64,000 nt of DNA from Flavobacteriales bacterium. Lineage in GTDB: Bacteria; Bacteroidota; Bacteroidia; Flavobacteriales_F; PHOS-HE28. Below are positions 1 to 27,544 of the stretch, piece after piece. The stretch lies in the NCBI GenBank assembly GCA_016710685.1, contig JADJVC010000001.1:72948-136947 (forward strand). Reading direction: 5' to 3'. The notes beneath the pieces are model-generated. The model was not told the origin of the DNA and searched no databases. It worked only from the letters and a program-made list of their open reading frames with translations. The position numbers were made by a program, and so were the translations under genes. The stretch's first letter is position 1. Each line of letters opens with the position of its first letter.

Positions 1-370
1 TTGGAACAAAGTAGCGGAACTCGATGACCTGCGCGCCATGGACATCGGCATTATGCCCTTGCCGGATGATGATTGGGCCAGGGGCAAGTGTGGGCTGAAG
101 GGCCTGCAATACATGGCACTTGGCATTCCTTCGCTGATGAGCCCTGTAGGTGTGAACTGTGACATCATTCAGCACGGGATCAACGGTTTTTTACCAAGCA
201 ACGATGCCGAATGGGTGGCCGATATCTCCCGTTTGGTCGAAGATGCCGAGCTTCGCAGCTCCATTGGCCAGGCGGGACGCAACACCGTGGTGGAACAGTA
301 CAGCCTTCGCGCTTGGCAACAGCGCTACGTGGGCTTTTTCAATGAACTGATCGAACAACGCAAGAAATGA
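1..370 (+). CDS. glycosyltransferase family 1 protein, C-terminal part (5' end outside window)
   Basis: ORF runs to the window edge; the tail ([21 protein letters not shown]) resembles the GT1/GT4 C-terminal Rossmann domain. Confidence 0.55.
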
Positions 371-1482
371 CCGAAACCAATCCTCCGAAAGAAATCGAGC
401 TGTCCAACATCCATGAAGCCCTCGGTGCCAAAATGGTGCCCTTCGCCGGCTTTCTCATGCCCGTGCAATATTCCGGCGTGAACGATGAGCACCTCACCGT
501 GCGCAAAGCCGTCGGCGTGTTCGACGTTAGCCACATGGGCGAGTTCATCGTACGTGGACCCGGCGCACTGGACCTCATTCAAAAAGTGACCAGCAACGAT
601 GCCTCCAAGCTCACCACCGGCAAGGTGCAATACAGCTGCCTGCCGAATGACAAAGGCGGGATCGTGGACGACCTGCTGGTGTACAACATGCAGCACGGCG
701 ACGACACCCATTACGTGTTGGTGGTAAACGCCGGTAACATCCAAAAGGACTGGGACTGGATCAATGCGCGCAACACATTCGATGCTCAACTGGAAAACAT
801 CAGCGACCACATGTCGCTGCTGGCCGTGCAAGGCCCCAAAGCCACCGATACGCTGAAAGGCCTGTTCAAGGAAGACATTGGCGCCATGCCATATTACACC
901 GCCATGTACGCCGAGATGAAGGGCGTGGGCCTGGTGCTCATTTCTTCCACGGGCTACACCGGCGCTGGCGGATATGAGATCTACATGCCGAATCCGCTCG
1001 CGGAAAAAGCATGGAGCGCCATTTTCGAAGCTGGAAAGCCATTTGGCATCAAGCCTGCTGGCCTCGCTGCCCGCGACACCCTGCGCCTGGAAATGGGCTT
1101 CTGCCTCTACGGGAACGACATCGACGATACCACTTCGCCGCTGGAAGCCGGACTGGGCTGGATCACCAAATTCACCAAGGAATTCACCAACTCCGCTGCG
1201 CTGAAGGCTGAAAAGGAAGCGGGAGTGAAGAACAAATTGGTGGGCTTTGAACTGCTCGATCGCGGCATTCCGCGCCATGATTGCGCCATAGTGGATAGCG
1301 ACGGAAAAGTAATCGGCAGAGTGACCAGCGGCACCATGAGCCCCAGCATACAAAAGCCCATCGGCATGGCCTACGTGCCCAAGGAAATGAGCGCGCCGGG
1401 CACCGAAATTCTCGTGGACGTGCGCGGCAAAATGCTGAAAGGAATTGTGGTGAAAACGCCGTTTATTGAGGTCGCGAAGTGA
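367..1482 (+). CDS. gcvT: glycine cleavage system aminomethyltransferase T
   Basis: 371 aa; GcvT motifs ([29 protein letters not shown]) and typical length. Confidence 0.9.
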
Positions 1483-1586
1483 GAGTGGTGTTGGACATTG
1501 CAAGACTCAGACTCAAGCTCAGCTAGACCTGACTCAAGACTCACGACTCAAGACTCTGCTCTCTGTGCCTCTGTGGTGAATAAAAA

Positions 1587-2336
1587 ATGAAGGCTGTCTC
1601 CCGCAACACCGACTACAAATTCCGCGTGGAAGTGTGCTACACCCCCGGCCAGTTTCCGCTGTACAAGCAGGACATGGGCATCGTGGTGGTCATCGACATC
1701 CTGCGCGCCACCAGCGCCATGGTCGCAGCTTTTGAGCATGGGGTGAAGGACATCATTCCAGTGGCCACCATTGAGGAAGCGAGGCAGTACATCGGCCGCG
1801 AAGGCTACATCGCTGCCGCTGAACGCAACGGCGAGATCGTAGAGGGATTTCCTGTAGGCAATTCGCCGCTCGCCTTCAAGGCCATGGACCTGCGCGGAAA
1901 AACCATCGTGATCAGTACCACAAATGGAACACAGGCCATCAACACCGGACGCGAAGCGCGGAAGCTCGTGATCGGCTCGTTTCTCAACCTCAGTGCGCTT
2001 AGCAATTGGTTGCTTCAGCAAGACGATAACATCCTGTTGCTTTGCTCCGGCTGGAAGGACAAATTCAGTTTAGAGGACAGTGTTTTCGCCGGTGCGGTGA
2101 TGGAACGCTTGCTGGAAAGCGGTAAATTCGGCGTGGAAGAGGACAGTAGCATCGCTTCCAAATACCTGTACATGGCAGCCCGAGACAACTTTATGAGCAT
2201 CCTGAAAGCGGCGCCCCGCCGCAAAAGGCTTCAGCAATTGCACTTATTGGAAGACGTGAAGTACTGCCTTACGCCGGACCAAAGCAAAGCCATTCCTATT
2301 CTTCGCAACGGCCGGTTGGTCCTGCTCGAAAACTGA
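1587..2336 (+). CDS. 2-phosphosulfolactate phosphatase (ComB) family protein
   Basis: 249 aa; IDILRATSAM and TNGTQAI motifs typical of the ComB family. Confidence 0.65.
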   Translation: MKAVSRNTDYKFRVEVCYTPGQFPLYKQDMGIVVVIDILRATSAMVAAFEHGVKDIIPVATIEEARQYIGREGYIAAAERNGEIVEGFPVGNSPLAFKAMDLRGKTIVISTTNGTQAINTGREARKLVIGSFLNLSALSNWLLQQDDNILLLCSGWKDKFSLEDSVFAGAVMERLLESGKFGVEEDSSIASKYLYMAARDNFMSILKAAPRRKRLQQLHLLEDVKYCLTPDQSKAIPILRNGRLVLLEN

Positions 2337-2339
2337 ACC

Positions 2340-3353
2340 ATGAACCGTAAAACCGCGCTGCGCGCATTTGCCTTGTTCCTTGGCCTCGCCGTGGCGTGGC
2401 CGTTCTTCATGCAGCGCGATGCCGAGGCCTGGGGCTTCTATGGCCACCGCCGCATTAACCGCATGGCCGTCTTCACCCTGCCGCCCGCCATGTTCGGCTT
2501 CTACAAGCGCCACATCGATTATGTCACTGACCATGCCACCGACCCCGACAGCCGTCGCTATGCCGTAGCAGCCGAGGCTCCGCGTCACTACATCGACATT
2601 GATCATTACGTGCCGGCAGGGGAGGATCCCTTCAAGGAAGTGCCCAAAAAATGGGACCTTGCCGTGCAGAAATTCACTGAGGATACCTTGCAAGCTTATG
2701 GTATCGTGCCATGGCACATTCCGGTGATGTACGGCAGGCTCGTGAATGCATTTAAACGCGGCAGCGTGGACCGGATCCTCTACTACAGCGCGGAAATCGG
2801 CCACTACATTGGAGATGCCCACGTGCCCCTCCACACCACGGAGAACTACAACGGTGACATGACCGGCCAGCACGGCATCCACGCATTTTGGGAAACGCGT
2901 ATTCCGGAACTAAATGCCGATAGTTACGACCACTTCACCGGCCGCGCCCAGTACATCGCCGACCCGTTGGAAGCCGCCTGGGACGCCGTGATCGGTAGCC
3001 ATGCAGCATTAGACACCGTGTTCAGCAAGGAAAAAGAACTGCAGGCCACCTTCCCGGAAAGCGAGAAGTATGTCTACGAACAACGCGGACGCGGCAGCGT
3101 GCAGCTCTACTCCAAAGAATTCACGGCAGCGTACGAGCAAAGCATGGGCGGCATGGTGGAGCGCCGCATGAATGCCGCCATCATATCAGTGGGCAGCTTT
3201 TGGTACAGCGCGTGGGTAGATGCCGGCCAACCCGACTTGGACCACTTCGACCAAAAGGACGTGAGCGACAGCTTGAAACAAGTGCTGAAAGCCGAAGACG
3301 AGGAGCGCAAGAATTCCTCTAAGGCGTTCGGTAGGGAGGAGCCGAGTGAGTGA
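2340..3353 (+). CDS. S1/P1 nuclease family protein (zinc-dependent phospholipase C/nuclease superfamily), secreted
   Basis: Signal peptide followed by a WGxxGH N-terminus (WGFYGHRRIN) and His/Asp-rich metal ligands. Confidence 0.6.
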   Translation: MNRKTALRAFALFLGLAVAWPFFMQRDAEAWGFYGHRRINRMAVFTLPPAMFGFYKRHIDYVTDHATDPDSRRYAVAAEAPRHYIDIDHYVPAGEDPFKEVPKKWDLAVQKFTEDTLQAYGIVPWHIPVMYGRLVNAFKRGSVDRILYYSAEIGHYIGDAHVPLHTTENYNGDMTGQHGIHAFWETRIPELNADSYDHFTGRAQYIADPLEAAWDAVIGSHAALDTVFSKEKELQATFPESEKYVYEQRGRGSVQLYSKEFTAAYEQSMGGMVERRMNAAIISVGSFWYSAWVDAGQPDLDHFDQKDVSDSLKQVLKAEDEERKNSSKAFGREEPSE

Positions 3354-3359
3354 ATGTAT
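3224..3359. repeat. direct repeat copy 1 (136 bp), comprising the last ~43 codons and stop of the S1/P1 nuclease gene
   Basis: Near-identical to 4626..4761 with about 3 mismatches. Confidence 0.85.
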
Positions 3360-3401
3360 GCTCCTCAGGGGTCTCTCGAAAAGACCTGAAAATATAAATT
3401 T

Positions 3402-4590
3402 CTACTTCAGGAAAAGCTTCCCGGTCAGCGACGTCCCGTACGCGTTATCGATCCGGTACACATAGCTTCCGGCCACAAGATTCTTCCGCAGGAATACGCA
3501 CGACGGACCGTGGAATTCCTGCTGGCTCACGACTCTGCCGCTCATGTCGCTTACCGTGAGTTTGTGCGTGGCCGGTGATGTTTCGCTCAATTCAATTGTG
3601 GCTTGGGATAACACCGGGTTGGGGTAAACCCGCACTGCAGTTCCTGTATTGGCCATGTCGTGCGTGCTCAAATTTGGATTTTCCAAAATGGTGCGAAATT
3701 GTTCGAATGTGCCAGCGTCCATCAACGTGTGGCGGTACCCTCCAGCCCAGGTGTCTACGCCTAGAACATTGTAATTCACGTTGTCCGTTACCAAAATGCC
3801 ACTGCCACTCTCCCCGGGAACTCCAACCCAATTCTGTACGCCTACATAATTGGCGATACCAGCACTGCTGAGCACCACAGGCGTGGAGAAATGGTAAAGT
3901 GTGTCCCCGTTGTAAATAATGCTCGGGTCACCTGCAACATTGTCTGCCGGATAGGAGAACTTGTGGACAATTTTATCGTTGAAATAGGTGGAATCCGTGG
4001 TAAAGCCTAAGCCGATCCATCCGAGTTCTTCACCTAACGGATGTTCCAGCTCAATCAAAGCATTATCTCGTTCCCACTCCAATGGTACGTAGTAACGGAC
4101 CGCGCGAGCTCACCCGTAAATACACCGGATTCCGTTGTCAAAAAACTGGATTAAAGTCTATCTGCCCGGTGCGCCATTCCCCGCTGAACATATCCCGCAA
4201 GCAATGGGATGCGGTAAGGACATGCCAAGGCCCAACTAACTGTCCAGAGCATCGCGCCCAACTCGAATCAGCTTCAATCCTCCTTAATGCGCCAACGGCC
4301 CGTATGGGGTAGTCTGTCAACGAATTCATACTTGCGGCGGTTGGTGGCAGTTGATTTCCCGGACCGAGGTAGCCCGCAGGGGCGGCCATATTATCCAACG
4401 TTATCAAACCGGGCAGTGTGCCGATGCCATTTGATAAAAAGCCCGAAACCGAATCCGTGACAGCCACGGGATGGATCGTGTCCACTTCCTCCGTTACCGG
4501 GTTGTAGACTAAAATGGTGTTGTCCTGTGCCAATAGCGACAGTTGAAAGAGAGCGAAACCAAAAGAAATCAGTGCGCAACGAATTTGCAT
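3402..4590 (-). pseudogene. trypsin-like (S1) serine peptidase with T9SS C-terminal sorting domain, disrupted
   Basis: Signal peptide plus TASHC (His) in ORF 4138..4590; Asp region, GESGSG (Ser) and Por/T9SS CTD in ORF 3402..4082, which is in another frame. A TGA after a T6 run at 4138 and a second in-frame TGA mean at least 2 lesions are needed to join the parts. Confidence 0.7.
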
Positions 4591-4625
4591 TGACGATGAA
4601 CGAAGAGCAGGGGATTTTAGTACGT

Positions 4626-4761
4626 CGGCCAACCCGACTTGGACCACTTCGACCAAAAGGACGTGAGCGACAGCTTGAAACAAGTGCTGAAAGCCGAAGA
4701 CGAGGAGCGCAAGAATTCCTCCAAGGCGTTCGGGAGGGAGGAGCCGAGTGAGTGAGTGTAT
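4626..4761. repeat. direct repeat copy 2 (136 bp), an orphan duplicate of the nuclease gene 3' end
   Basis: Aligns to 3224..3359. Confidence 0.85.
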
Positions 4762-4789
4762 TCGGATTTCAGTTGCCCTCTGTCATTTC

Positions 4790-6238
4790 CTATTGCCGCG
4801 CCACTACCACACGTTGCAGTTGCCTGCTGCCGTTCTGCTCAAGCTCCAATAAGTACATGCCATCTGCAACGGCATTAAGGTCCATGCGGTGCACCGCAGC
4901 CATGGGCAGCACAGTTTTTACCAATGCGCCTTGCACTGAGTATAAGCGCAAGGTGCTGCCGGGTTGTACGCCGTCCAAGGAAATGTTCAGGAAGTCATTG
5001 GCAGGGTCGGGCCAAACACGGAACCGGCCTTCTTCATTTTCTGTGATCGCATTGAATTCGCCGATTTGGAAATCCGTGCTGTAGGTGGTGCCGGCGTAGT
5101 CCACCTGAAATTGCCAGTTGCCCGTTGGCCAAGTGGAGTTCACCACGTTGACCCATTGCGTATATGCCGTGGCGTAGTAGGGCCAAGGCGAAGTCCAGCT
5201 CCATTCTTCGAACAGCCCGTCGGGGCTGATGTTACGCATGGTATGAACGCTGGCCGAGTCGAGGTCGCGGTAGTAGATCTTGAAGATGATGGAGTCCCCG
5301 ACGTTGAAGCCGGTCTGCTCGTACGTGATCTCGGGCGTGGGACAATTGTAGTTGTCCAGTGTGGAATAGTGTGTGGAGATGTGGTTGACCTGCGGAATTG
5401 AATAGGCCGGTTGGACCGCCCACCAACTTTCGGTGCCATTCATGCTGTTGCACGGCCCCGCATAAGGGTCCACCACATTGTTGTTGGCGTCCATCACTTG
5501 AAAATGCAGGTGGGGATAGCTGCTGCTCCCACTGCTGCCGGCATTGCCGAGAAATTCCCCGGCCACTACCGTTTCGCCGATGCCTTTCGCGGTAACCGTG
5601 CCGGACTTCATGTGCCAATACCACGATTCGGAACCGTCGGAATGTTCCAGCACGATACCGTTCCAATCGGGACTTCCCGTGTTGCTGCACATCCGGTCGA
5701 AGTATCCGTCGCGCTTGTTGATGATCACACCGTCCGCTGCGGCGATGATCTCCATGTTCTCCTCGTCCATCTGTTTCCATCCATAGGGCCAGTAGACCAC
5801 GTCCGTTCCCGCATGGTTCCCGCTCGCCCAATCGTACGTGCGCGTGCCACAATCGTAATCCAGCACATGGTTGTTGGGCAACGGATCATGGTCCACCCCG
5901 AAACGCACGGCACTGTATCCGTAATCGTCAAACCCCGCGCGGGCCTGCGTTGGCCAGATGAACAGCGGGTGGTTACCGCCTCGGTCCACCTGCGGAAGTT
6001 CCGGGTGCTCGGCATGTACATGCTGGGCGTTCCGCTGATTTTCCAATGAAACCTCCTGCTGTTGTTCCAGCGAAATGCACGGTGCGTTTTCCACGGAAGG
6101 CGTGCCAAGGAAGCCTTTCCACCCGCTCGTACCGCTCGGTTCAAGGGGCTGAAGGTTTTGTGCCTCGGCGCCTTTCCATGCAGTGAGCACCAACAAAGTG
6201 CAGGCGGTCATGCGCCAAAATGCAGTTTTCCGTTTCAT
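4790..6238 (-). CDS. M23 family metallopeptidase with T9SS C-terminal sorting domain
   Basis: Signal peptide (MKRKTAFWRMTACTLLVLTAW); LytM/M23 motifs (HSDGSESWYWHM, GNAGSSGSSSYPHLHFQV); C-terminal CTD (LRLYSVQGALV..YLLELEQNG). The ORF's upstream ATG at 6295 is less likely. Confidence 0.75.
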   Translation of the reverse strand: MKRKTAFWRMTACTLLVLTAWKGAEAQNLQPLEPSGTSGWKGFLGTPSVENAPCISLEQQQEVSLENQRNAQHVHAEHPELPQVDRGGNHPLFIWPTQARAGFDDYGYSAVRFGVDHDPLPNNHVLDYDCGTRTYDWASGNHAGTDVVYWPYGWKQMDEENMEIIAAADGVIINKRDGYFDRMCSNTGSPDWNGIVLEHSDGSESWYWHMKSGTVTAKGIGETVVAGEFLGNAGSSGSSSYPHLHFQVMDANNNVVDPYAGPCNSMNGTESWWAVQPAYSIPQVNHISTHYSTLDNYNCPTPEITYEQTGFNVGDSIIFKIYYRDLDSASVHTMRNISPDGLFEEWSWTSPWPYYATAYTQWVNVVNSTWPTGNWQFQVDYAGTTYSTDFQIGEFNAITENEEGRFRVWPDPANDFLNISLDGVQPGSTLRLYSVQGALVKTVLPMAAVHRMDLNAVADGMYLLELEQNGSRQLQRVVVARQ

Positions 6239-6332
6239 TTCGGCGAGTTTTATCCGCCGAAAGTAGACTTTCTGATAGTCTCTGTCCATCCCCAAAAGGG
6301 GGGATGTGGTATTTTCTGCAAATCATTCCGGC

Positions 6333-7004
6333 CTAGAACCGGCCGATCTTCAACGTTACCCCGGCATTGAAGCCTCGCAGCGCGTCCTTCGGAGTTTCCG
6401 GTAGGGTGATGTCCGAAGTGTAGCGGTACGAAACTCCAAGGCCCAACCGCACCAGCTTGATCATGCTGAGCTCTAGCGCGATGCCTGGTTCAATAACGAA
6501 AAAGGCCTGTGCATCGCCGGTATTATACCGGGTTGGGCCGTTCGGTCGTCCCAAGCGGCTTTCGTAGGTCTCGTAAACCGCTCCACCAGCGCCGATGATC
6601 ACCGGTAAGGTAACGTGTATGGCACTGCGGTAGGCGATCACCGGCTCGATCAACAAGCCGCCATAGCCCATGCGGAATTGGCTGGTGTGCCGGACGAAAA
6701 TGCCTTCCTCCGCAAGATGTGAATCGTAGGCCGTGTTCGGTACGTCCGTCACCAGGCCAAAACCGGCGAATCCGAGTGTCACCCGATGGTCGATGATCCA
6801 GCCGCCACGCACGCCGGTGAGCAGCGCATCTTGGTCCATCACGCGTGTGTAATGCGCCGAAAGACCGCCCCAACCTCCGTTCGAGCGGCCGCTACCGGAG
6901 CCGATAAGCGTGTGCATGGGCAAGGTGTCGGTCTGGGCGTTCAGAAGGACCGGTAACGCAATTGCAAAGAGGAAAGCGGCGAAGGGAAATGGTTTGTGTC
7001 GCAT
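6333..7004 (-). CDS. hypothetical secreted/outer-membrane protein
   Basis: Signal peptide (FPFAAFLFAIALPVLLNAQ); Gly-rich with alternating hydrophobics, suggesting a beta-barrel. Confidence 0.5.
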   Translation of the reverse strand: MRHKPFPFAAFLFAIALPVLLNAQTDTLPMHTLIGSGSGRSNGGWGGLSAHYTRVMDQDALLTGVRGGWIIDHRVTLGFAGFGLVTDVPNTAYDSHLAEEGIFVRHTSQFRMGYGGLLIEPVIAYRSAIHVTLPVIIGAGGAVYETYESRLGRPNGPTRYNTGDAQAFFVIEPGIALELSMIKLVRLGLGVSYRYTSDITLPETPKDALRGFNAGVTLKIGRF

Positions 7005-7066
7005 GGTGCGGTGTTGTTTGCCCATATGACAAACACATCGCTGGAAACCCCTATGCGGTCGAAAAA

Positions 7067-7639
7067 TTAATTCTTCCCATGCCCCACCAATGCTCCTTCC
7101 AGCACCAGCAACTGCACCTTCAACACCGCTGCCACCGTGAGGCTGTCCCGCACTTCACCCCGCTGCACCATGGCGTACAGCTCCGCGAACGGCAATTTGC
7201 GCTGCTCCAGCTCCTCGTCATGATCCGGCTCCGGAGCATGAAAGGTGAGGCCCTGTGCCACGAAGATGATGGCCTGCTCGTCGCTGGCGCTGTTGCTCAG
7301 GTCCATTTGCAGGATCTCCGTCCATTGGTCCGCCTCAATGCCCACTTCTTCACGCAGCTCGCGCTTGGCACTTTCCATTGCCGGGATGTTGCGGTCTCCG
7401 CCGCCTTCGGGCATTTCCCAACTGTAAGCTTCCATGGGGTAGCGGTACTGCCCCACGATCCAGGTGTTCATGTCCTCATCCAGCGGGATCACGCCCACGG
7501 CGAGATTCTTGAAGTGGATCACGCCGTATACGCCCTGCTTCCCGCCGGGGTCGATCACTTCGTGGTGCGCCACGGAGATCCAGGGGGTTTCGTACGCCAA
7601 TTTCTCGCTCAGGGTGGTCCACGGACCGCGCTTCTTCAT
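7067..7639 (-). CDS. NUDIX hydrolase
   Basis: Nudix box GGGDRNIPAMESAKRELREEVG. Confidence 0.8.
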   Translation of the reverse strand: MKKRGPWTTLSEKLAYETPWISVAHHEVIDPGGKQGVYGVIHFKNLAVGVIPLDEDMNTWIVGQYRYPMEAYSWEMPEGGGDRNIPAMESAKRELREEVGIEADQWTEILQMDLSNSASDEQAIIFVAQGLTFHAPEPDHDEELEQRKLPFAELYAMVQRGEVRDSLTVAAVLKVQLLVLEGALVGHGKN

Positions 7640-7782
7640 GCGGCAAAGATGACAACGGGCTTTGTTTTACCGCAGAGGGCGCGGAGAACACAGAGGATCG
7701 TCATGGTGCTCTCCGGATTTTACCCCGTCCCTCGCGCCCGGCATTTCTCAGCGCTCTCCGCGCCCTCCGCGGTTTCACTTCG

Positions 7783-8547
7783 TCATCTCCGCGAGGGATC
7801 CAGCCGGAACATGATGTCAAGCTTCATCACGCTGCGTACCAATTGGCCGTCTTTCACCGCCGGTTGCCAGCAGAGCATGCGCACCAGTCGCATGGCCTCC
7901 GCATCACAGCCACCGCCCAGGAAATTCAAGGTACGTAGATTGCTCACACTGCCGGTGGTCTCCACCGTGAATTCGATCGTGACCTTGCCCTGGATGTCCA
8001 AGCGGAAGGCTTCCGGTGGGTACTTCAGGTTTTGCCCCAAATAATTCGGCAATTGGCGAAGCCCACCTTCGATCCGCGGGGTGGCCAAGGTGTCCGTTTC
8101 GCGATCGGTGTACAGCTTGTTCGATGCATCCTGGGGCAACGTGCTTTCCAGCGGCGGACAAGCTTTTTTCTTCGCTTGCAGCTTGGTGTACTTCTTCGCG
8201 TTGAAAGGGATCATGATGCTATGGTCCTTCTCGAAGACCGTGCCGTTCGCCGAGGCGGGCCTCCAGCGGAGCATGCGCGCCAAACGGAGTGCTTCCGCAT
8301 CGCAGGCGGGGTCCAACGGCAGGCTTACGCGCGCGTTTTGCACGGAACCGTCCTCCAGTATTTTGAAACTAATTCCCACCTCGCCATTCAGCCCAGTGGC
8401 TAATGCTTCCTGCGGAAAATGCTGCTCCTGCTCCAGGAACCAGTTCACGGCATCTTTGCCGCCCAACGGTTCGGGCGGGGTGAAGTCCTGCGCGGAAGCA
8501 AGCGTTGCCAGAAGGAGGAAAAAGGGGGGGAGAAGTATTCGCGCCAT
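7783..8547 (-). CDS. TonB C-terminal domain-containing protein (two TonB_C-like repeats)
   Basis: Signal peptide; two copies of the YP.EA...G.EG.V...F.V...G.V motif ending CDAEA(L/M)RL(A/V)RML(R/C)W(R/Q)PA. Confidence 0.55.
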   Translation of the reverse strand: MARILLPPFFLLLATLASAQDFTPPEPLGGKDAVNWFLEQEQHFPQEALATGLNGEVGISFKILEDGSVQNARVSLPLDPACDAEALRLARMLRWRPASANGTVFEKDHSIMIPFNAKKYTKLQAKKKACPPLESTLPQDASNKLYTDRETDTLATPRIEGGLRQLPNYLGQNLKYPPEAFRLDIQGKVTIEFTVETTGSVSNLRTLNFLGGGCDAEAMRLVRMLCWQPAVKDGQLVRSVMKLDIMFRLDPSRR

Positions 8548-8566
8548 GGTCCCGTAAATTTGCAGC

Positions 8567-9157
8567 ATGGCCGCCAAACCAACATTCGTCCCCGGTGATG
8601 AAGTTTCCTTCCTGAACGAGGTGGGCGGCGGCATGGTGTTGTCCCTGGTGGGCAAGGACCACGCCAAGGTACGTACGTTCGATGGCTTCGAGTTCGCAGT
8701 GCCGCTGAAAGAACTTGTGATGCGCGCCCAAAATTCCAGTTATGCCGTAAGCGACCACCACGCCCAGCTTCGCGCCAGCGACGACCGCATGATGGAGCGC
8801 ATTGAGCGCAACAAAGGTCGCGGTGGCTCATCGGCAAACGGCGGAACTGCCCCCAAACCCGTGGCCGACCCGCAAACGGTGGAGGTGGACTTGCATCTCC
8901 ACAAGTTGGTGGAGGACGAAAGCAAGTTGAGCGATGGTGAAAAACTCAGCTTTCAACTCGATTTTTTCGAGCGCCGCTTGAACACGGCCATCCGCGAACG
9001 CAAAAAGCGCGTCATAGTGATACACGGCGTGGGCGAAGGGATTCTGCGCGAAGAAGTGCGGAAGACCCTGCAGTTCTACGAAGGCGTCCGTTTCGATGAC
9101 GCCGACCCGCGCAAATACGGCTACGGCGCTACGGCTATTGAGATTTTGCATTATTGA
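8567..9157 (+). CDS. Smr/MutS2-type small endonuclease domain protein
   Basis: C-terminal Smr motif VIVIHGVGEGILREEV. Confidence 0.65.
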   Translation: MAAKPTFVPGDEVSFLNEVGGGMVLSLVGKDHAKVRTFDGFEFAVPLKELVMRAQNSSYAVSDHHAQLRASDDRMMERIERNKGRGGSSANGGTAPKPVADPQTVEVDLHLHKLVEDESKLSDGEKLSFQLDFFERRLNTAIRERKKRVIVIHGVGEGILREEVRKTLQFYEGVRFDDADPRKYGYGATAIEILHY

Positions 9158-9208
9158 GCGTTCGTTGCGCAGGGGCCCGAAGTGGAGACCTGCGAAGAAG
9201 TTCATTGA

Positions 9209-9643
9209 CATCCTGCGCACTGCTCCGCCGTTCTTTCCGCCGCATGGCGGGGAGGGAGGAAAGTCCGGGCAGCAAAGGGCACCGTGCTTCCTAACGGGAA
9301 GGGGCGCCGCTGGTGACGGTGGCGTTACGGAAAGTGCCACAGAAAGGGAAACCGCCGATCGTTGAAGTTGAAGTGAAGGCCCGCCTTCGCCAAGGCTTCG
9401 GCGAGGCAAGGATGAAAAGGTGGGGTAAGAGCCCACCAGTGCCCCGTGTGAGCGGGGCAGCTTGGTAAACCCCACGGGCTGAAAGACCAAATAAGCTGGA
9501 ACGCCTGCCGCAAGGCAGGCTAAGCGCGGCCCGCGTGATCCAGCGGGTAGGTCGATAGAGGCCGTGCGCGAGCACGGTCCCAGATAGATGGCGGAGGTCC
9601 GCCGCAAGGTGGATACAGGATCCGGCTTATAGGTGCGCAGGCT
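9209..9643 (+). ncRNA. rnpB: RNase P RNA, bacterial type A
   Basis: P4 strands GGAGGAAAGTCCGGGC and ACAGGATCCGGCTTAT; ACAGAAAGGGAAACCGCC, GGTAAGAGCCCACCAG and GGTAAACCCCAC conserved blocks; P1 pairing CCTGCGCAC/GTGCGCAGG. Confidence 0.85.
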
Positions 9644-9649
9644 TTTTTG

Positions 9650-9690
9650 CAAAGGCCCCGGCAGCAATGTTGGGGCCTTTTGCGATTTAA
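9650..9690 (+). terminator. rho-independent terminator after rnpB
   Basis: GGCCCC..GGGGCC hairpin followed by TTTTGCGATTT. Confidence 0.6.
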
Positions 9691-9857
9691 AGCCTTACCA
9701 CGCGCTCAGGTTTTTGCAGAGCATGCGTGCCGTAGGGATGTGCGATCTGCATAGGGCCTCTGGCCCGCCTCAAACGCTGTGAATCTAATTCCGTGTTTTG
9801 GACGGGAGCTCAATTCTTTAATGGGTTGTATAAAAGTGCGGAGGGAGTGGCTAGGGT

Positions 9858-11192
9858 TTAATTCCTATTGAACACCAGAGGCTTTGCAGGTGTAGTCTCG
9901 CGGATGTGGATCATTCCATTGAACTGCTCTTTGGCGATAATCCGGTCGGAACATCTCTTGTAATTCATGAAGACTGCTCCGATATCATAGGTCCGCTGTG
10001 GCGTTGTAAAAATGGGGTCATCAGTAGCGGAGAGGTCCATGAAGAACGCTACTTCCTTGGTTGTGTCAAAAGAGTTCGTCAACGTGTTCCTTTTGGATGG
10101 CGGTACCGTGCATGCCATCCGTCCTTTGTACATGTGCTTCCGCCGGAACACGTATTTGTAAGCCGTGCCATAAAGCGTGTTAGGTCCCTTGAAGGCTTGG
10201 AAGGAACCTTCGCTGAAGGTGAACCCGACCGCGTAATACTTCTCGTTGTAATCGTCCTTCAAGTATCCACCCATGGGGCGCATCACGGAGTTGTTAACGA
10301 TGGACTGGTTGATATGTCCGTTGTGCGCCCAAATGAACATTTTCGACTTCCGCTCCTGCTGGATCTGATGGATGTTGGCGGCCATGCAACTGTCGCGGAA
10401 GTTGTAGCCGGGGGAGAGGTTCTTTACCGCTTGGTCGAAGTTGTCAGAGCAGTGTTGCATCGTCAGGAACCGCGCGCTGGACGAGCTGGTTCGAATGGCC
10501 TCTTCATTCGTATTCAGCCAAGCCTCAAGGAGGGAATGCATCTGGTTCAACGTGTCGGAATAGTGCTGGTCCTTGTCCTGAAGTTTGTGGTAAAGTTCCA
10601 GTTCGGAATGTTGGACCACCGGGCTGATGATGGCTTGCAGTGCTTCCTTGTTCCCGATGTTCAACTTGCCGATGGACCGGCTCAAATACTGGATGGGTGT
10701 ATAAAAATTCTGCATGTCAAAGCCGTAGAACAGAACCTTGTCATCCTGCGCCCTTCCGGCGTTAAAGTCCTTGATCCAAAGTACAAGCTCCTTCATCTCT
10801 GCGTTCTGCCAAGTCCAGAAATCGAAATGCCTTAGAACGGAATCGATGTCACCGATGCCGGAATCGACATAGTCATTGATGGAACTGCATCCTCCGAACG
10901 AGTCTTCGATCCCGAAAATCCTATATCCGTGGTTCTGCACCAAATATTTGAAGGACTCCCGCTTGATGTCGAAGAACTCCTTTGTCCCATGTGTTGCTTC
11001 CCCCATGCCGAACACCAGCACATCGTCAAAACCGGCTTTAGACCGGAAGAAGTCGAAATAGAGGTTGGGGGCGCTTTTTTCGAAAGTATAGATTGTTTCA
11101 TCGGAGGATCCGATCTGCACTACCTCTTGGGAATCGGCCTTGCCAAAAAGGCATGCCATGAATAAGATGGAAAGGGGAGGTGCGATGGTCAT
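9858..11192 (-). CDS. erythromycin esterase (Ere) family protein
   Basis: 444 aa; family-typical N-terminus (VFGMGEATHGTKEF); lower GC than the flanks. Confidence 0.7.
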   Translation of the reverse strand: MTIAPPLSILFMACLFGKADSQEVVQIGSSDETIYTFEKSAPNLYFDFFRSKAGFDDVLVFGMGEATHGTKEFFDIKRESFKYLVQNHGYRIFGIEDSFGGCSSINDYVDSGIGDIDSVLRHFDFWTWQNAEMKELVLWIKDFNAGRAQDDKVLFYGFDMQNFYTPIQYLSRSIGKLNIGNKEALQAIISPVVQHSELELYHKLQDKDQHYSDTLNQMHSLLEAWLNTNEEAIRTSSSSARFLTMQHCSDNFDQAVKNLSPGYNFRDSCMAANIHQIQQERKSKMFIWAHNGHINQSIVNNSVMRPMGGYLKDDYNEKYYAVGFTFSEGSFQAFKGPNTLYGTAYKYVFRRKHMYKGRMACTVPPSKRNTLTNSFDTTKEVAFFMDLSATDDPIFTTPQRTYDIGAVFMNYKRCSDRIIAKEQFNGMIHIRETTPAKPLVFNRN

Positions 11193-11223
11193 GCAGGTGT
11201 GAAGGCGAGTCTTGGGTATTGTT

Positions 11224-11297
11224 ACAGTTGGACAGACTTCGCAAGTCTACTCCCCATACCGATAATGCCCAATCACCTTGTAGCCGAACAAACAATC
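11224..11297. repeat. 'A' repeat copy 1: palindrome AGACTTCGCAAGTCT plus duplicated DUF1287 3' end (encodes ..YKVIGHYRYGE)
   Basis: 74 bp with about 5 mismatches to 11482..11555. Confidence 0.85.
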
Positions 11298-11362
11298 GCT
11301 CGGCCTCCCGCAAGTGTTCCAGCCTTCCACATCGTGCGTTTCCACTTGGCTGGATCCCCAAT

Positions 11363-11485
11363 CTCTACCGCAAGTCTTCCCAGCCAACCAGAGATGGGGT
11401 TCCAGCATACTTAGCTGGGGCGACTTGTGGCAGCTCAGTCGTAGCGTACGGTCGCGTACCTGGAAGTCTTCAGACTTCAACACAG
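11363..11485. repeat. 'B' repeat copy 1 (123 bp)
   Basis: About 80% identical to 13223..13345; ends in the GGAAGTCTTCAGACTTC palindrome. Confidence 0.85.
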
Positions 11486-11555
11486 TTGGACAGACTTCGC
11501 AAGTCTACATCCCATACCGATAATGCCCAATAACCTTGAAGCTGAACAAACAATC
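11482..11555. repeat. 'A' repeat copy 2, covering the true 3' end of the DUF1287 gene plus 23 bp downstream
   Basis: See copy 1. Confidence 0.85.
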
Positions 11556-11933
11556 CTCAAGCACTTGCCCCGCACCAATGTTGTGGACCATCAAATGCCT
11601 TTTGCCATCCGCAGCCTTCCGGTTTGACACAATGCCAATGTGCGTGATGCCGCCTCCCAAGTTCCAACAAACAAGGTCTCCCGGCAGGTAGGTTTTCGGA
11701 TCTTGGAGAAGGTCCAGCTTCCTGTAGGCGCGGATCACAACATCGGTACACACGCCCTTGCTTGCCGGCACATCACCGTTCGGGTAGTCCAGCTTGAAGT
11801 AGGATGGATCGTAATGCACCGTTTGCTTCGTGAGCACTTCCGCAGAATCTGCGAGCTGGGTGTAGAAGTCAGTTTGACCTGAAACCGGAATGAGGGATAG
11901 TGACCAAAGCGATAGGAAGAGCAGAATTCTCAT
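11505..11933 (-). CDS. DUF1287 domain-containing protein, secreted
   Basis: Signal peptide; VHYDPSY..PNGDVP..GVCTDVVIRAY motif typical of DUF1287. Confidence 0.65.
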   Translation of the reverse strand: MRILLFLSLWSLSLIPVSGQTDFYTQLADSAEVLTKQTVHYDPSYFKLDYPNGDVPASKGVCTDVVIRAYRKLDLLQDPKTYLPGDLVCWNLGGGITHIGIVSNRKAADGKRHLMVHNIGAGQVLEDCLFSFKVIGHYRYGM

Positions 11934-13174: not shown

Positions 13175-13222
13175 TGCTCTTTGTTGAATGGGTCGAAGAT
13201 ATCGAATGCAAACGCGACCATG

Positions 13223-13345
13223 CTCTACCGCACGTCTTCCCAGCCAACCCGATCTGGAGTTCCAACAAACAGAGCTGGGGCGACTTGTGGCACCTCAGTC
13301 TTGATGTACGGTTGTTCTGCTGGAAGTCTTCAGACTTCAACACAG
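13223..13345. repeat. 'B' repeat copy 2 (123 bp), 48 bp upstream of the PETase-like gene
   Basis: Aligns to 11363..11485. Confidence 0.85.
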
Positions 13346-27460: not shown

Positions 27461-27544
27461 TGCCCAGGACTGGACTCGAACCAGCACAGCCTTTCGGCCA
27501 CACGCCCCTCAAGCGTGCGTGTCTACCAATTTCACCACCTGGGC
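27461..27544 (-). tRNA. tRNA-Leu (anticodon GAG)
   Basis: GCCCAGG acceptor, D-arm, anticodon loop TTGAGGG, long variable arm, GGTTCGAGTCC T-arm; CCA not encoded. Confidence 0.85.

Follow-up and report, generated by a model that had tools for sequence, protein, structure and literature searches.

The 3′ end of an S1/P1 nuclease gene occurs twice, in the same orientation, on either side of a predicted trypsin-like protease gene in the window, which is the whole 64,000-nucleotide stretch of Flavobacteriales DNA analysed here. The structure is a species-specific, fixed rearrangement scar that is now inactive by itself. The chances are roughly even that the repeat is the scar of a single additive (that is, non-replacing) recombination event, a displacement, at a variable locus abutting a conserved gene.

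Anatomy of the repeat and its cargo

The two copies, R1 and R2 (Table 1), are identical at 133/136 positions, and the longest exact match between them runs for 96 nt. The earlier note had described just such a repeat of the nuclease 3′ end including the stop codon, and its extent is confirmed. R1 and R2 form the longest direct repeat of the 64-kb window, which holds no third copy, and chance cannot produce a repeat of this kind. The 3 mismatches between R1 and R2 lie at positions 3320 (T/C), 3332 (T/G) and 3354 (A/G); those at 3320 and 3332 fall in third codon positions and are both synonymous, and position 3354 is G in three closely related strains (L167, L168 and L171). The similarity of R2 to the nuclease gene begins abruptly at 4626, inside coding sequence, and a recombination junction is placed at 4625/4626, where it would mark the left end of the orphan copy. 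On the right, homology of the two flanks stops at 3359/3360, 6 nt past the nuclease stop codon; such divergence at the repeat end is expected if each copy was carried along with its own downstream allele. Faint similarity to the nuclease gene left of R2 was dismissed as chance, since this stretch encodes the protease signal peptide.

Table 1 Features of the nuclease–NUDIX region, in window coordinates
Feature	Coordinates	Strand	Description
S1/P1 nuclease gene	2340..3353	+	337 aa, intact; PF02265, E 7e-8; last 130 nt in R1
R1	3224..3359	+	Joined to nuclease gene; 127 nt coding, stop codon 3351-3353 and 6 nt
Spacer, R1 to protease stop codon	3360..3401	.	42 bp
Predicted trypsin-like serine protease gene with T9SS C-terminal sorting domain	3402..4590	-	395 aa when intact
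Spacer, protease ATG to R2	4591..4625	.	35 bp
R2	4626..4761	+	Orphan copy of nuclease 3′ end, without upstream gene body
M23 peptidase gene with T9SS sorting domain	4790..6295	-	PF01551 and PF18962; first gene after R2
230-aa ORF	6333..7025	-	No family match; in species-specific nuclease–NUDIX block; absent in L011
NUDIX hydrolase gene	7067..7639	-	Synteny with L011 resumes from window position 7095 onwards

The nuclease is strongly conserved: an identical protein was found on at least 22 contigs, and its C-terminal tail is kept across about 130 relatives. The interval between the copies (3360-4625, 1266 bp) holds a single gene, the minus-strand protease, as the earlier note had proposed. On sequence grounds the product is a predicted trypsin-like protease (S1/PA clan) with a type T9SS sorting domain: the intact conspecific protein scores 25.1 bits against PF00089 (cut-off 20.6) and 30.5 bits against PF18962 (cut-off 27), and 13 family members keep the predicted catalytic residues H129, D175 and S261 with little or no variation. 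The Bacteroidetes-type TAnnTTTG motif is absent from the 210 nt upstream of the gene. GC content is 50-53% in the protease and 54-60% in the flanks, a difference that is not decisive. Beyond R2, the M23 peptidase has a closest homologue of only 52% identity, in a different gene context, and an M23 peptidase lies next to the nuclease in none of the heterospecific relatives. The block that it leads would represent a displaced resident allele.

Regulatory or structural functions for the repeat found no support. Promoter and terminator scans and folding at the boundaries of repeat and cargo never exceeded shuffled controls, so no promoter or terminator role is claimed for R2. Folding of the 42-bp spacer gave no significant structure (z -1.2), and an Rfam search detected no RNA family in or near the repeat. 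The JGI annotation places a 38-aa in-frame ORF with a TTG start at R2; this tail ORF called by pipelines is a scar and no gene.

Conservation among conspecific and related genomes

On 16/16 distinct conspecific contigs from independent JGI, ENA and NCBI assemblies, apparently built from long reads as well as short reads, R1 and R2 stand equally far apart and enclose an uninterrupted 395-aa protease gene. No empty site occurs among these contigs (0/16), and a gapped-pattern scan of the metagenome_contigs collection, combining the nuclease left flank with the M23-side right flank, returned 0 matches in a set that holds only one conspecific contig, so that this negative counts for very little. 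The earlier note had seen a signature of mobility here, to be given up if relatives carried the two repeats around an intact protease; the 16 contigs show exactly this. They also bear on chimeric joining of strain variants through the shared tail. The window and its relatives are metagenome assemblies, and a patch of lesions private to the window may be a consensus error, but the junctions, the spacing and the copy-specific differences recur in 16 distinct contigs from three sources, and a shared k-mer cannot create the 4625/4626 junction. An assembly artefact is already refuted as the origin of the repeat and keeps almost no probability.

In the nearest other species (L011), whose shared genes are about 81-84% identical to the window at the DNA level, the nuclease gene is followed by 446 bp with a Hva1_TUDOR mini-gene and then by the NUDIX gene. 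L011 has one tail copy and lacks the protease, the second copy, the M23 peptidase and the 230-aa ORF. Because all conspecifics share the structure and L011 lacks these four parts, the structure is taken as a fixed scar of this one species. The expectation that relatives would have one repeat copy and no protease is thus borne out by L011, except that the M23 peptidase and the 230-aa ORF are missing there too, and by none of the conspecifics. Right after the nuclease stop codon, almost each of about 150 relatives has a different region, and the locus is therefore a variable site beside a conserved anchor. Neither of the postulated parental alleles (nuclease followed by protease, and nuclease followed by M23 peptidase) was found among these relatives.

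The absences in L011 also weigh on a tandem duplication, aborted or in part deleted again, of a segment reaching from the nuclease tail through the protease; the earlier note had offered an aborted one as an origin. It would account for direct repeats of the same orientation at a 1.4-kb spacing. However, doubling of tail plus protease predicts two protease copies, an extra deletion ending exactly 6 nt past the stop codon would be needed, and the sister species is without protease and M23 peptidase altogether. With several extra exact deletions to be assumed, this is the least economical reading, and it is highly improbable.

Lesions of the protease gene in the window

In the window itself the protease gene falls apart into two ORFs, 3402..4082 and 4138..4683. 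Alignment to the intact copies of conspecifics located the lesions: a TGA stop on the minus strand (4110-4112 on the plus strand) that stems from a C at 4111, two missense changes (4123 and 4126), and a +1 frameshift caused by one additional A in the run 4140-4145 (T6 on the coding strand). The earlier note had correctly seen the frameshift and the in-frame TGA, to which the two missense changes are added, and had concluded that the cargo gene is decaying. That conclusion does not hold. All four lesions lie within one 30-bp patch (4111-4140) that is private to the window sequence and missing from the three closest strains L167, L168 and L171, one of them 99.4% identical, which otherwise share the protease allele of the window. 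The patch is not progressive decay; a single very recent event in one strain and a consensus error are about equally likely. An argument for relaxed selection from the substitutions that had seemed private to the window protease (14/37) was discarded, as those outside the 30-bp patch all occur in L167, L168 and L171 too. A pseudogene call from a single sequence needs population context, and the protease is intact in every other strain sampled.

Tail copies at other loci

Tail duplications at the nuclease gene recur in an independent lineage. On a single 2.9-kb co-assembly contig, L032 carries its own nuclease tail in three copies, with partial support from L034 only. Copy 1 runs into 38 bp whose opening stretch of about 23 nt corresponds to the spacer of the 'empty' L102 allele; copy 2 adjoins a 164-aa ORF without a break, as does the real nuclease gene in L105 and L034; and the flank after copy 3 is another one again. 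L034 carries the ORF164 homologue and a decayed tail copy. Two of the three units of L032 match single alleles of related strains (L102, L105), and the tail copy there came with its cargo and hence is not a target-site duplication. The left boundary of the tail copy lies 130 nt before the stop codon in the window and 66 nt before it in L032. A perfect 55-bp tandem duplication inside the nuclease tail of L044, possibly an assembly error, was set aside.

The window has a second gene-tail duplication at a distance of 8 kb: positions 11224-11297 repeat the 3′ end of a DUF1287 gene (11482-11555), and this copy is decayed in some strains. It argues for a general process over one specific to the nuclease site.

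Origin of the repeat

Displacement would start from DNA of a related strain that carried a nuclease 3′ end with the protease gene directly downstream, and that entered the resident chromosome by recombination between homologous stretches of the nuclease gene. The incoming DNA could have been a circularised fragment, joined by a single crossover inside the 136-bp tail, or it could have recombined homologously upstream and been joined illegitimately at a point 35 bp upstream of the protease start codon. The incoming tail (R1) would then complete the nuclease gene, with the protease next to it, and the resident tail (R2) would be orphaned and pushed 1.4 kb downstream together with the M23 peptidase, the 230-aa ORF and the NUDIX gene. 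Recombination between R1 and R2 could in principle loop the protease out again; no such allele was seen. We infer both the block that arrived last and the recombination route. The parallel stack of tail copies in L032, the variable site beside a conserved anchor, the lack of mobility genes and the DUF1287 tail copy speak for displacement. Against it, neither parental allele was found, and this uncultured lineage is not known to be naturally transformable.

The order of arrival draws on the differences between the copies. L011, as outgroup, has the R2 state at 3320 and 3354 and matches neither copy at 3332. Over these two or three sites only, the comparison weakly suggests that R1 derives from a diverged functional allele and that R2 is ancestral-looking; two synonymous coding differences are what would be expected if R1 were such an allele.

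Another point against displacement is that protease orthologues occupy other loci, so that the gene could have been translocated within the genome, without a nuclease tail. The orthologues in related species are 55-65% identical and lie in other neighbourhoods, with SnoaL, acetyltransferase, MDR, TPP-enzyme and methylase genes, of which the TPP-enzyme and methylase genes are found downstream of the nuclease in other species. The contexts surveyed for M23 and protease homologues included no allele with an adjoining nuclease, and an attempt to rebuild the ancestral locus from them was abandoned because gene order is too scrambled.

These orthologues lend some weight to an illegitimate or replicative insertion in situ, in which template switching, in the course of replication or repair, transferred or duplicated the protease from another place in the same genome. 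A return of synthesis to the original template 136 bp upstream would leave a long target duplication, with both copies derived from the resident tail. The cargo fits this origin in being one tightly trimmed gene with flanks of 42 bp and 35 bp, as does the lack of mobility genes, and the DUF1287 tail copy demonstrates local dispersed duplications in this genome. Yet the protease has no known donor locus or paralogue, with 65% identity in its next best match, and no clear microhomology was found at 4625/4626. R2, which would be unconstrained after such an insertion, has fewer derived states than the constrained R1, and the tail copy of L032 arrived together with cargo. We regard insertion in situ as unlikely.

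If displacement is the true origin, additive stacking of alleles on the 3′ end of a conserved gene is not confined to polymorphic-toxin loci, the Rhs, CDI and T6SS clusters from which it is known, and also shapes ordinary accessory-gene sites in uncultured Flavobacteriales of wastewater-type metagenomes, and orphan gene tails could help to reconstruct the succession of genes that came to such sites.

Searches for a mobile element

Elements that insert at gene ends can leave a repeat of this shape. Phage 21 and the e14 element integrate into the 3′ end of icd and bring a replacement 3′ end, and tycheposons are reportedly islands that integrate at tRNA and gene ends. The window resembles such insertions in its duplicated 3′ end, intact gene, original end at the far side and mostly synonymous differences, and differs in having no integrase, no element-like genes, no presence/absence variation across the 16 conspecific contigs and no relatives in the collections of viruses, phages and plasmids. 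A site-specific origin would make the locus the remnant of an integrative element with a tyrosine recombinase, for which the nuclease 3′ end served as attB and which brought a replacement 3′ end in attP; R1 and R2 would be attL and attR, and the element either lost its integrase and most of its cargo to later deletion or was a cargo-only satellite mobilised in trans. The direct repeats do duplicate the nuclease 3′ end, R1 completes the nuclease ORF, and the block of identity ends just past the stop codon. The locus is hypervariable, R2 looks ancestral and R1 derived, and with L032 a second lineage has tail duplications at this gene.

The searches themselves were negative. Recombinase, integrase and transposase families were absent from called genes within 10 kb on either side of the nuclease in ten conspecific loci; the bounded segment holds the protease only, with no integrase or recombinase inside or adjacent. 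The cargo ends have no terminal inverted repeats, viral contigs gave no match for the tail sequence or the protease, and phages and plasmids gave no blastn match. Further evidence against a site-specific element comes from the first unit of L032, whose 'cargo' is a mere 38 bp of ordinary spacer, from the unequal left boundaries of the tail copies, and from the DUF1287 tail duplication, which at an unrelated gene counts against a dedicated att site. A site-specific element is, on balance, improbable. The earlier note had interpreted the locus as a footprint of homologous or site-specific recombination by insertion or excision. Recombination still accounts for a repeat around DNA that is absent from L011, and the part of the proposal that concerns mobility is not supported, with no recombinase gene within 10 kb and no empty locus among the 16 conspecific contigs.

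Two other kinds of element fit poorly. Insertion of a transposon, IS or MITE does not fit a locus without inverted repeats or transposase and with a duplication of 136 bp versus 2-14 bp. An integron cassette is disfavoured by a repeat that consists of the coding sequence of the neighbouring gene, by the lack of a significant fold at the boundaries, and by the lack of an integrase within 10 kb of the nuclease. We further considered the nuclease tail as the landing pad of a gene-capture system, integron-like or tycheposon-satellite-like, in which a recombinase acting in trans stacks tail-bounded single-gene cassettes. The window and L032/L034 would then be two independent arrays in Flavobacteriales, a prospect that we hold to be decidedly remote.

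Comparison with known displacement systems

Exactly the topology of the window, with a homologous segment flanking the insert on both sides, results from Campbell-type insertion-duplication by a single crossover with circular DNA. That reaction is mainly a laboratory tool, and a natural source of circles at this locus would have to be supposed. For C-terminal displacement in Rhs genes, homologous recombination with circular intermediates has been proposed (Jackson et al. 2009, PMC2935791). The window is like the orphan modules of Rhs and CDI loci in that near-identical partial 3′ copies stand as direct repeats before displaced, unrelated modules, without mobility genes; R2, with 98% identity to R1, stands directly before the M23-led block. 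It is unlike them in its anchor, a housekeeping-type secreted S1/P1 nuclease with an invariable tail and no toxin/immunity logic, and in its modules, which are separate whole genes, the protease being on the opposite strand. Given the conserved nuclease tail and a cargo of protease and peptidase, the window would share the displacement mechanism and is not a member of the Rhs, CDI or T6SS toxin families.

For the T6SS effector-immunity arrays of V. cholerae, illegitimate recombination that homology facilitates has been proposed (Kirchberger et al. 2017, PMC5361080). There, as would be the case in the window, the incoming module is anchored by homology to the upstream gene and joined illegitimately at its other end, and the resident module shifts downstream. 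The window differs in offering no selective rationale comparable to the keeping of immunity genes. Single, unstacked alleles, as in relatives of strains with such arrays, occur in strains related to L032 (L102 and L105), whereas for the window neither single allele turned up among about 150 relatives. The window has one displaced unit, another difference from the Rhs arrays, compared with three units in L032.

Repeat structure and its conservation within the species

The end of an S1/P1 nuclease gene is present twice, once in place (R1) and once as an orphan copy (R2) beyond a protease gene. The direct repeat described in the earlier note is real, as is its account of the interval as holding the protease alone. 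The two 136-nt copies agree at 133/136 positions, 96 of them in one unbroken stretch, and their likeness breaks off sharply at both edges; a third copy, sought across the 64-kb window, was not found. The predicted His/Asp/Ser triad of the protease is kept across 13 family members.

Coordinates of features in the window and in related loci
Feature	Coordinates	Strand	Details
S1/P1 nuclease gene	2340..3353		PF02265; 3' end is R1
R1	3224-3359		127 nt of nuclease coding sequence, TGA at 3351-3353 and 6 nt beyond
R1/R2 difference	3320 (T/C)		Synonymous third codon position
R1/R2 difference	3332 (T/G)		Synonymous third codon position
R1/R2 difference	3354 (A/G)		1 nt past nuclease stop
Protease gene	3402..4590	minus	Trypsin-like serine protease, T9SS C-terminal sorting domain; sole gene in 1,266 bp between R1 and R2
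Lesion	4111		C for G vs conspecific contigs; TGA on coding strand
Lesions	4123, 4126		C for G vs conspecific contigs; Ser-to-Cys, Pro-to-Arg
Lesion	4140-4145 (run)		One extra A vs conspecific contigs
R2	4626-4761		Orphan copy
M23 peptidase gene	4790..6295	minus	T9SS domain; next after R2
230-aa ORF			Between M23 peptidase and NUDIX; no family match
NUDIX gene			After 230-aa ORF
RNase P RNA	9212-9645	plus	Bacterial class A; 255 bits
DUF1287 tail copy	11224-11297		
DUF1287 3' end	11482-11555		
tRNA gene	27461-27544	minus	
L032 array	1790-2535		Tail copies at 1790-1855, 1894-1959, 2470-2535
L034 post-nuclease region	1959-2531		
L105 post-nuclease region (single allele)	954-1526		
L102 post-nuclease region ('empty' allele)	6333-6375		

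Conspecific contigs were gathered by exact matches to the nuclease, NUDIX and ComB-like proteins and through a protease cluster representative, with one extra locus from a metagenome scan (n = 16 distinct contigs from JGI, ENA and NCBI assemblies). All 16 carry R1 and R2 at 1,401-bp spacing; the differences at 3320 and 3332 are fixed among them, and R1 position 3354 varies. The structure is fixed in the species, and an assembly artefact has a negligible probability. The earlier note had suggested mobility; both copies at the same spacing, with an intact protease, in all 16 conspecific contigs is the outcome which that note itself had said would count against it. A search for an empty-site pattern (an allele lacking the protease segment, with a single tail copy) gave 0 matches, which carries no weight as the collection held just one conspecific contig.

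Lesions private to the window

The protease reading frame is split in the window by a stop and a frameshift, as previously described, and four sites in the gene set the window apart from every conspecific contig compared. A first tally placed in the protease 14 of the 37 window-private changes counted over 9.6 kb, an apparent excess that vanished when closer strains came to light (L167, L168 and L171/L185, the last from GCA_049290415.1 and 99.4% identical to the window). Each of these encodes an unbroken 395-aa protease and shares the window's allele at all but the four lesion positions, so the lesions form one private 30-bp patch, which arose in one very recent event or is an error in the consensus. 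Contrary to the earlier proposal, the gene is not decaying in the population; it is intact in all 16 conspecific contigs. Two of the three private protease substitutions, 4123 and 4126, bring the match between 4121-4133 and its inverted complement at 3990-4002, a distance of 118 nt, from 9/13 up to 11/13; quasi-palindrome template-switch mutation would give this pattern, and chance could also account for it. Set against all ten contigs L001-L010, window 1-11,700 has just one other private indel, at 6311, where a run separating the start of the M23 gene from the 230-aa ORF differs as T4 versus T5 (L185 also has T5); both private indels sit in homopolymers.

DNA absent from the sister species

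Scans of GTDB species representatives and metagenome contigs yielded ~150 nuclease-orthologue loci of other species, none with the protease, M23 peptidase or 230-aa ORF near the nuclease. In the closest (L011; nuclease protein 95% identical, DNA of the shared genes ~81-84%), the nuclease is followed by 446 bp with a Hva1_TUDOR mini-gene and then NUDIX. Homology with the window ends at the nuclease stop codon and restarts at 7095, so the whole interval 3354-7094, R2 included, is specific to the window's species. The reading proposed earlier is supported in part: a scar of recombination surrounds DNA that the sister species lacks. Mobility is not supported; there is no mobility signature and the structure is fixed in the species.

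Sequence past the nuclease stop codon varies between almost all species. Protease orthologues (55-65% identical) lie in other gene contexts, and the nearest M23 homologue, just 52% identical, is at another place. At loci L013, L014, L033 and L091, genes for a TPP-dependent enzyme and a DNA methylase either come shortly after the nuclease, as in several related species, or adjoin the protease orthologue instead, as in MAG GCA_041691695.1, hinting that the protease was once part of the same variable neighbourhood.

Proposed displacement and its alternatives

The structure may work like a displacement array. For C-terminal displacement at rhs loci, the proposed route is homologous recombination by way of circular intermediates (PMC2935791); for the stacking of effector-immunity modules in T6SS clusters of V. 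cholerae, it is homology-facilitated illegitimate recombination (PMC5361080). The window matches both in having a partial, near-identical copy of a conserved gene's 3' region before a displaced unrelated module, and likewise in its absence of mobility genes. The invariant tail of the anchor gene and a cargo of ordinary secreted hydrolases place the structure outside the Rhs, CDI and T6SS toxin families.

We give about even chances to displacement by an incoming fragment carrying a nuclease tail and the protease. Homology with the resident chromosome would have let such a fragment recombine either in the tail or in the body of the gene, the latter route needing an illegitimate join at 4625/4626; R1 would have become the functional nuclease end, and the resident tail R2 would have shifted downstream with the M23, 230-aa ORF and NUDIX genes. 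L011 shares the R2 base at two of the three differing sites (3320, 3354) and at 3332 has the base of neither; this polarity, with both coding differences synonymous, would weakly favour displacement. Insertion by template switching in situ, leaving a long target duplication, is a less probable origin, and tandem duplication followed by deletions is highly improbable.

The R1/R2 arrangement also resembles the attL/attR of an element inserted in a gene 3' end, which a remnant or satellite of a site-specific integrative element would leave; a recombinase and relatives elsewhere define such elements, and neither was found for the window structure. Genes called up to 10 kb to each side of the nuclease at ten conspecific loci include no recombinase or transposase family, the cargo ends bear no terminal inverted repeats, and no relatives of the tail or protease were found in viral contigs, phages or plasmids. 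The repeat/protease region held no RNA family, and no structure, promoter or terminator signal above shuffled controls. Such an element is unlikely, and a dedicated cassette-capture site served by a recombinase in trans is more doubtful still. The origins weighed for the repeat leave a small part of the probability unassigned.

Parallel arrays

Searching all related loci for extra copies of their own nuclease tail singled out a lineage with a nuclease ~70% identical to that of the window. At its locus L032 the final 66 nt of the gene, stop codon included, occur three times. After copy 1 come 38 bp whose first ~23 nt match the post-nuclease spacer of an 'empty' relative, L102. Copy 2 leads into a secreted ORF of 164 aa (no family match), with the post-stop flank found after the genuine nuclease gene in L105 and L034, and copy 3 into a different flank and the conserved downstream gene. 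L034 has the ORF homologue and then a decayed tail copy. As these alternative alleles occur singly in related genomes, the array stacks alternative versions of the sequence at the post-nuclease site, and each version has retained a piece of nuclease tail at its left end. In this lineage the tail copy came together with its cargo and is not a target-site duplication. Structures of this type are already known; the window adds an example, and a second Flavobacteriales lineage shows it again at the same gene.

A second gene-tail duplication in the window involves DUF1287: the last 51 nt of the gene and a 23-nt hairpin-containing flank recur 258 nt away at 93% identity, directly upstream of an erythromycin-esterase-like gene. 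Only 22 nt of this copy remain in strains L001, L003 and L171. Between the DUF1287 copies, a 128-nt stretch (11358-11485) has an 83%-identical counterpart in the next intergenic region (13218-13345).

Other features

Long ORFs listed over 8828-9667 are spurious given the RNase P RNA there. In L044, another relative, 55 bp of the nuclease tail are perfectly duplicated in tandem (8844-8954), which shifts the tail reading frame; the duplication could be real or a hybrid-assembly error. Intergenic regions 1490-1567 and 7658-7777 contain short GACTCA/GCAGAG-type units and imperfect palindromes (for example, arms 7669-7695 and 7747-7773) and are the sites of greatest indel difference among conspecific contigs; in L029, L100 and L104, palindromes of a similar kind, rich in GAGTG, come after the nuclease gene.
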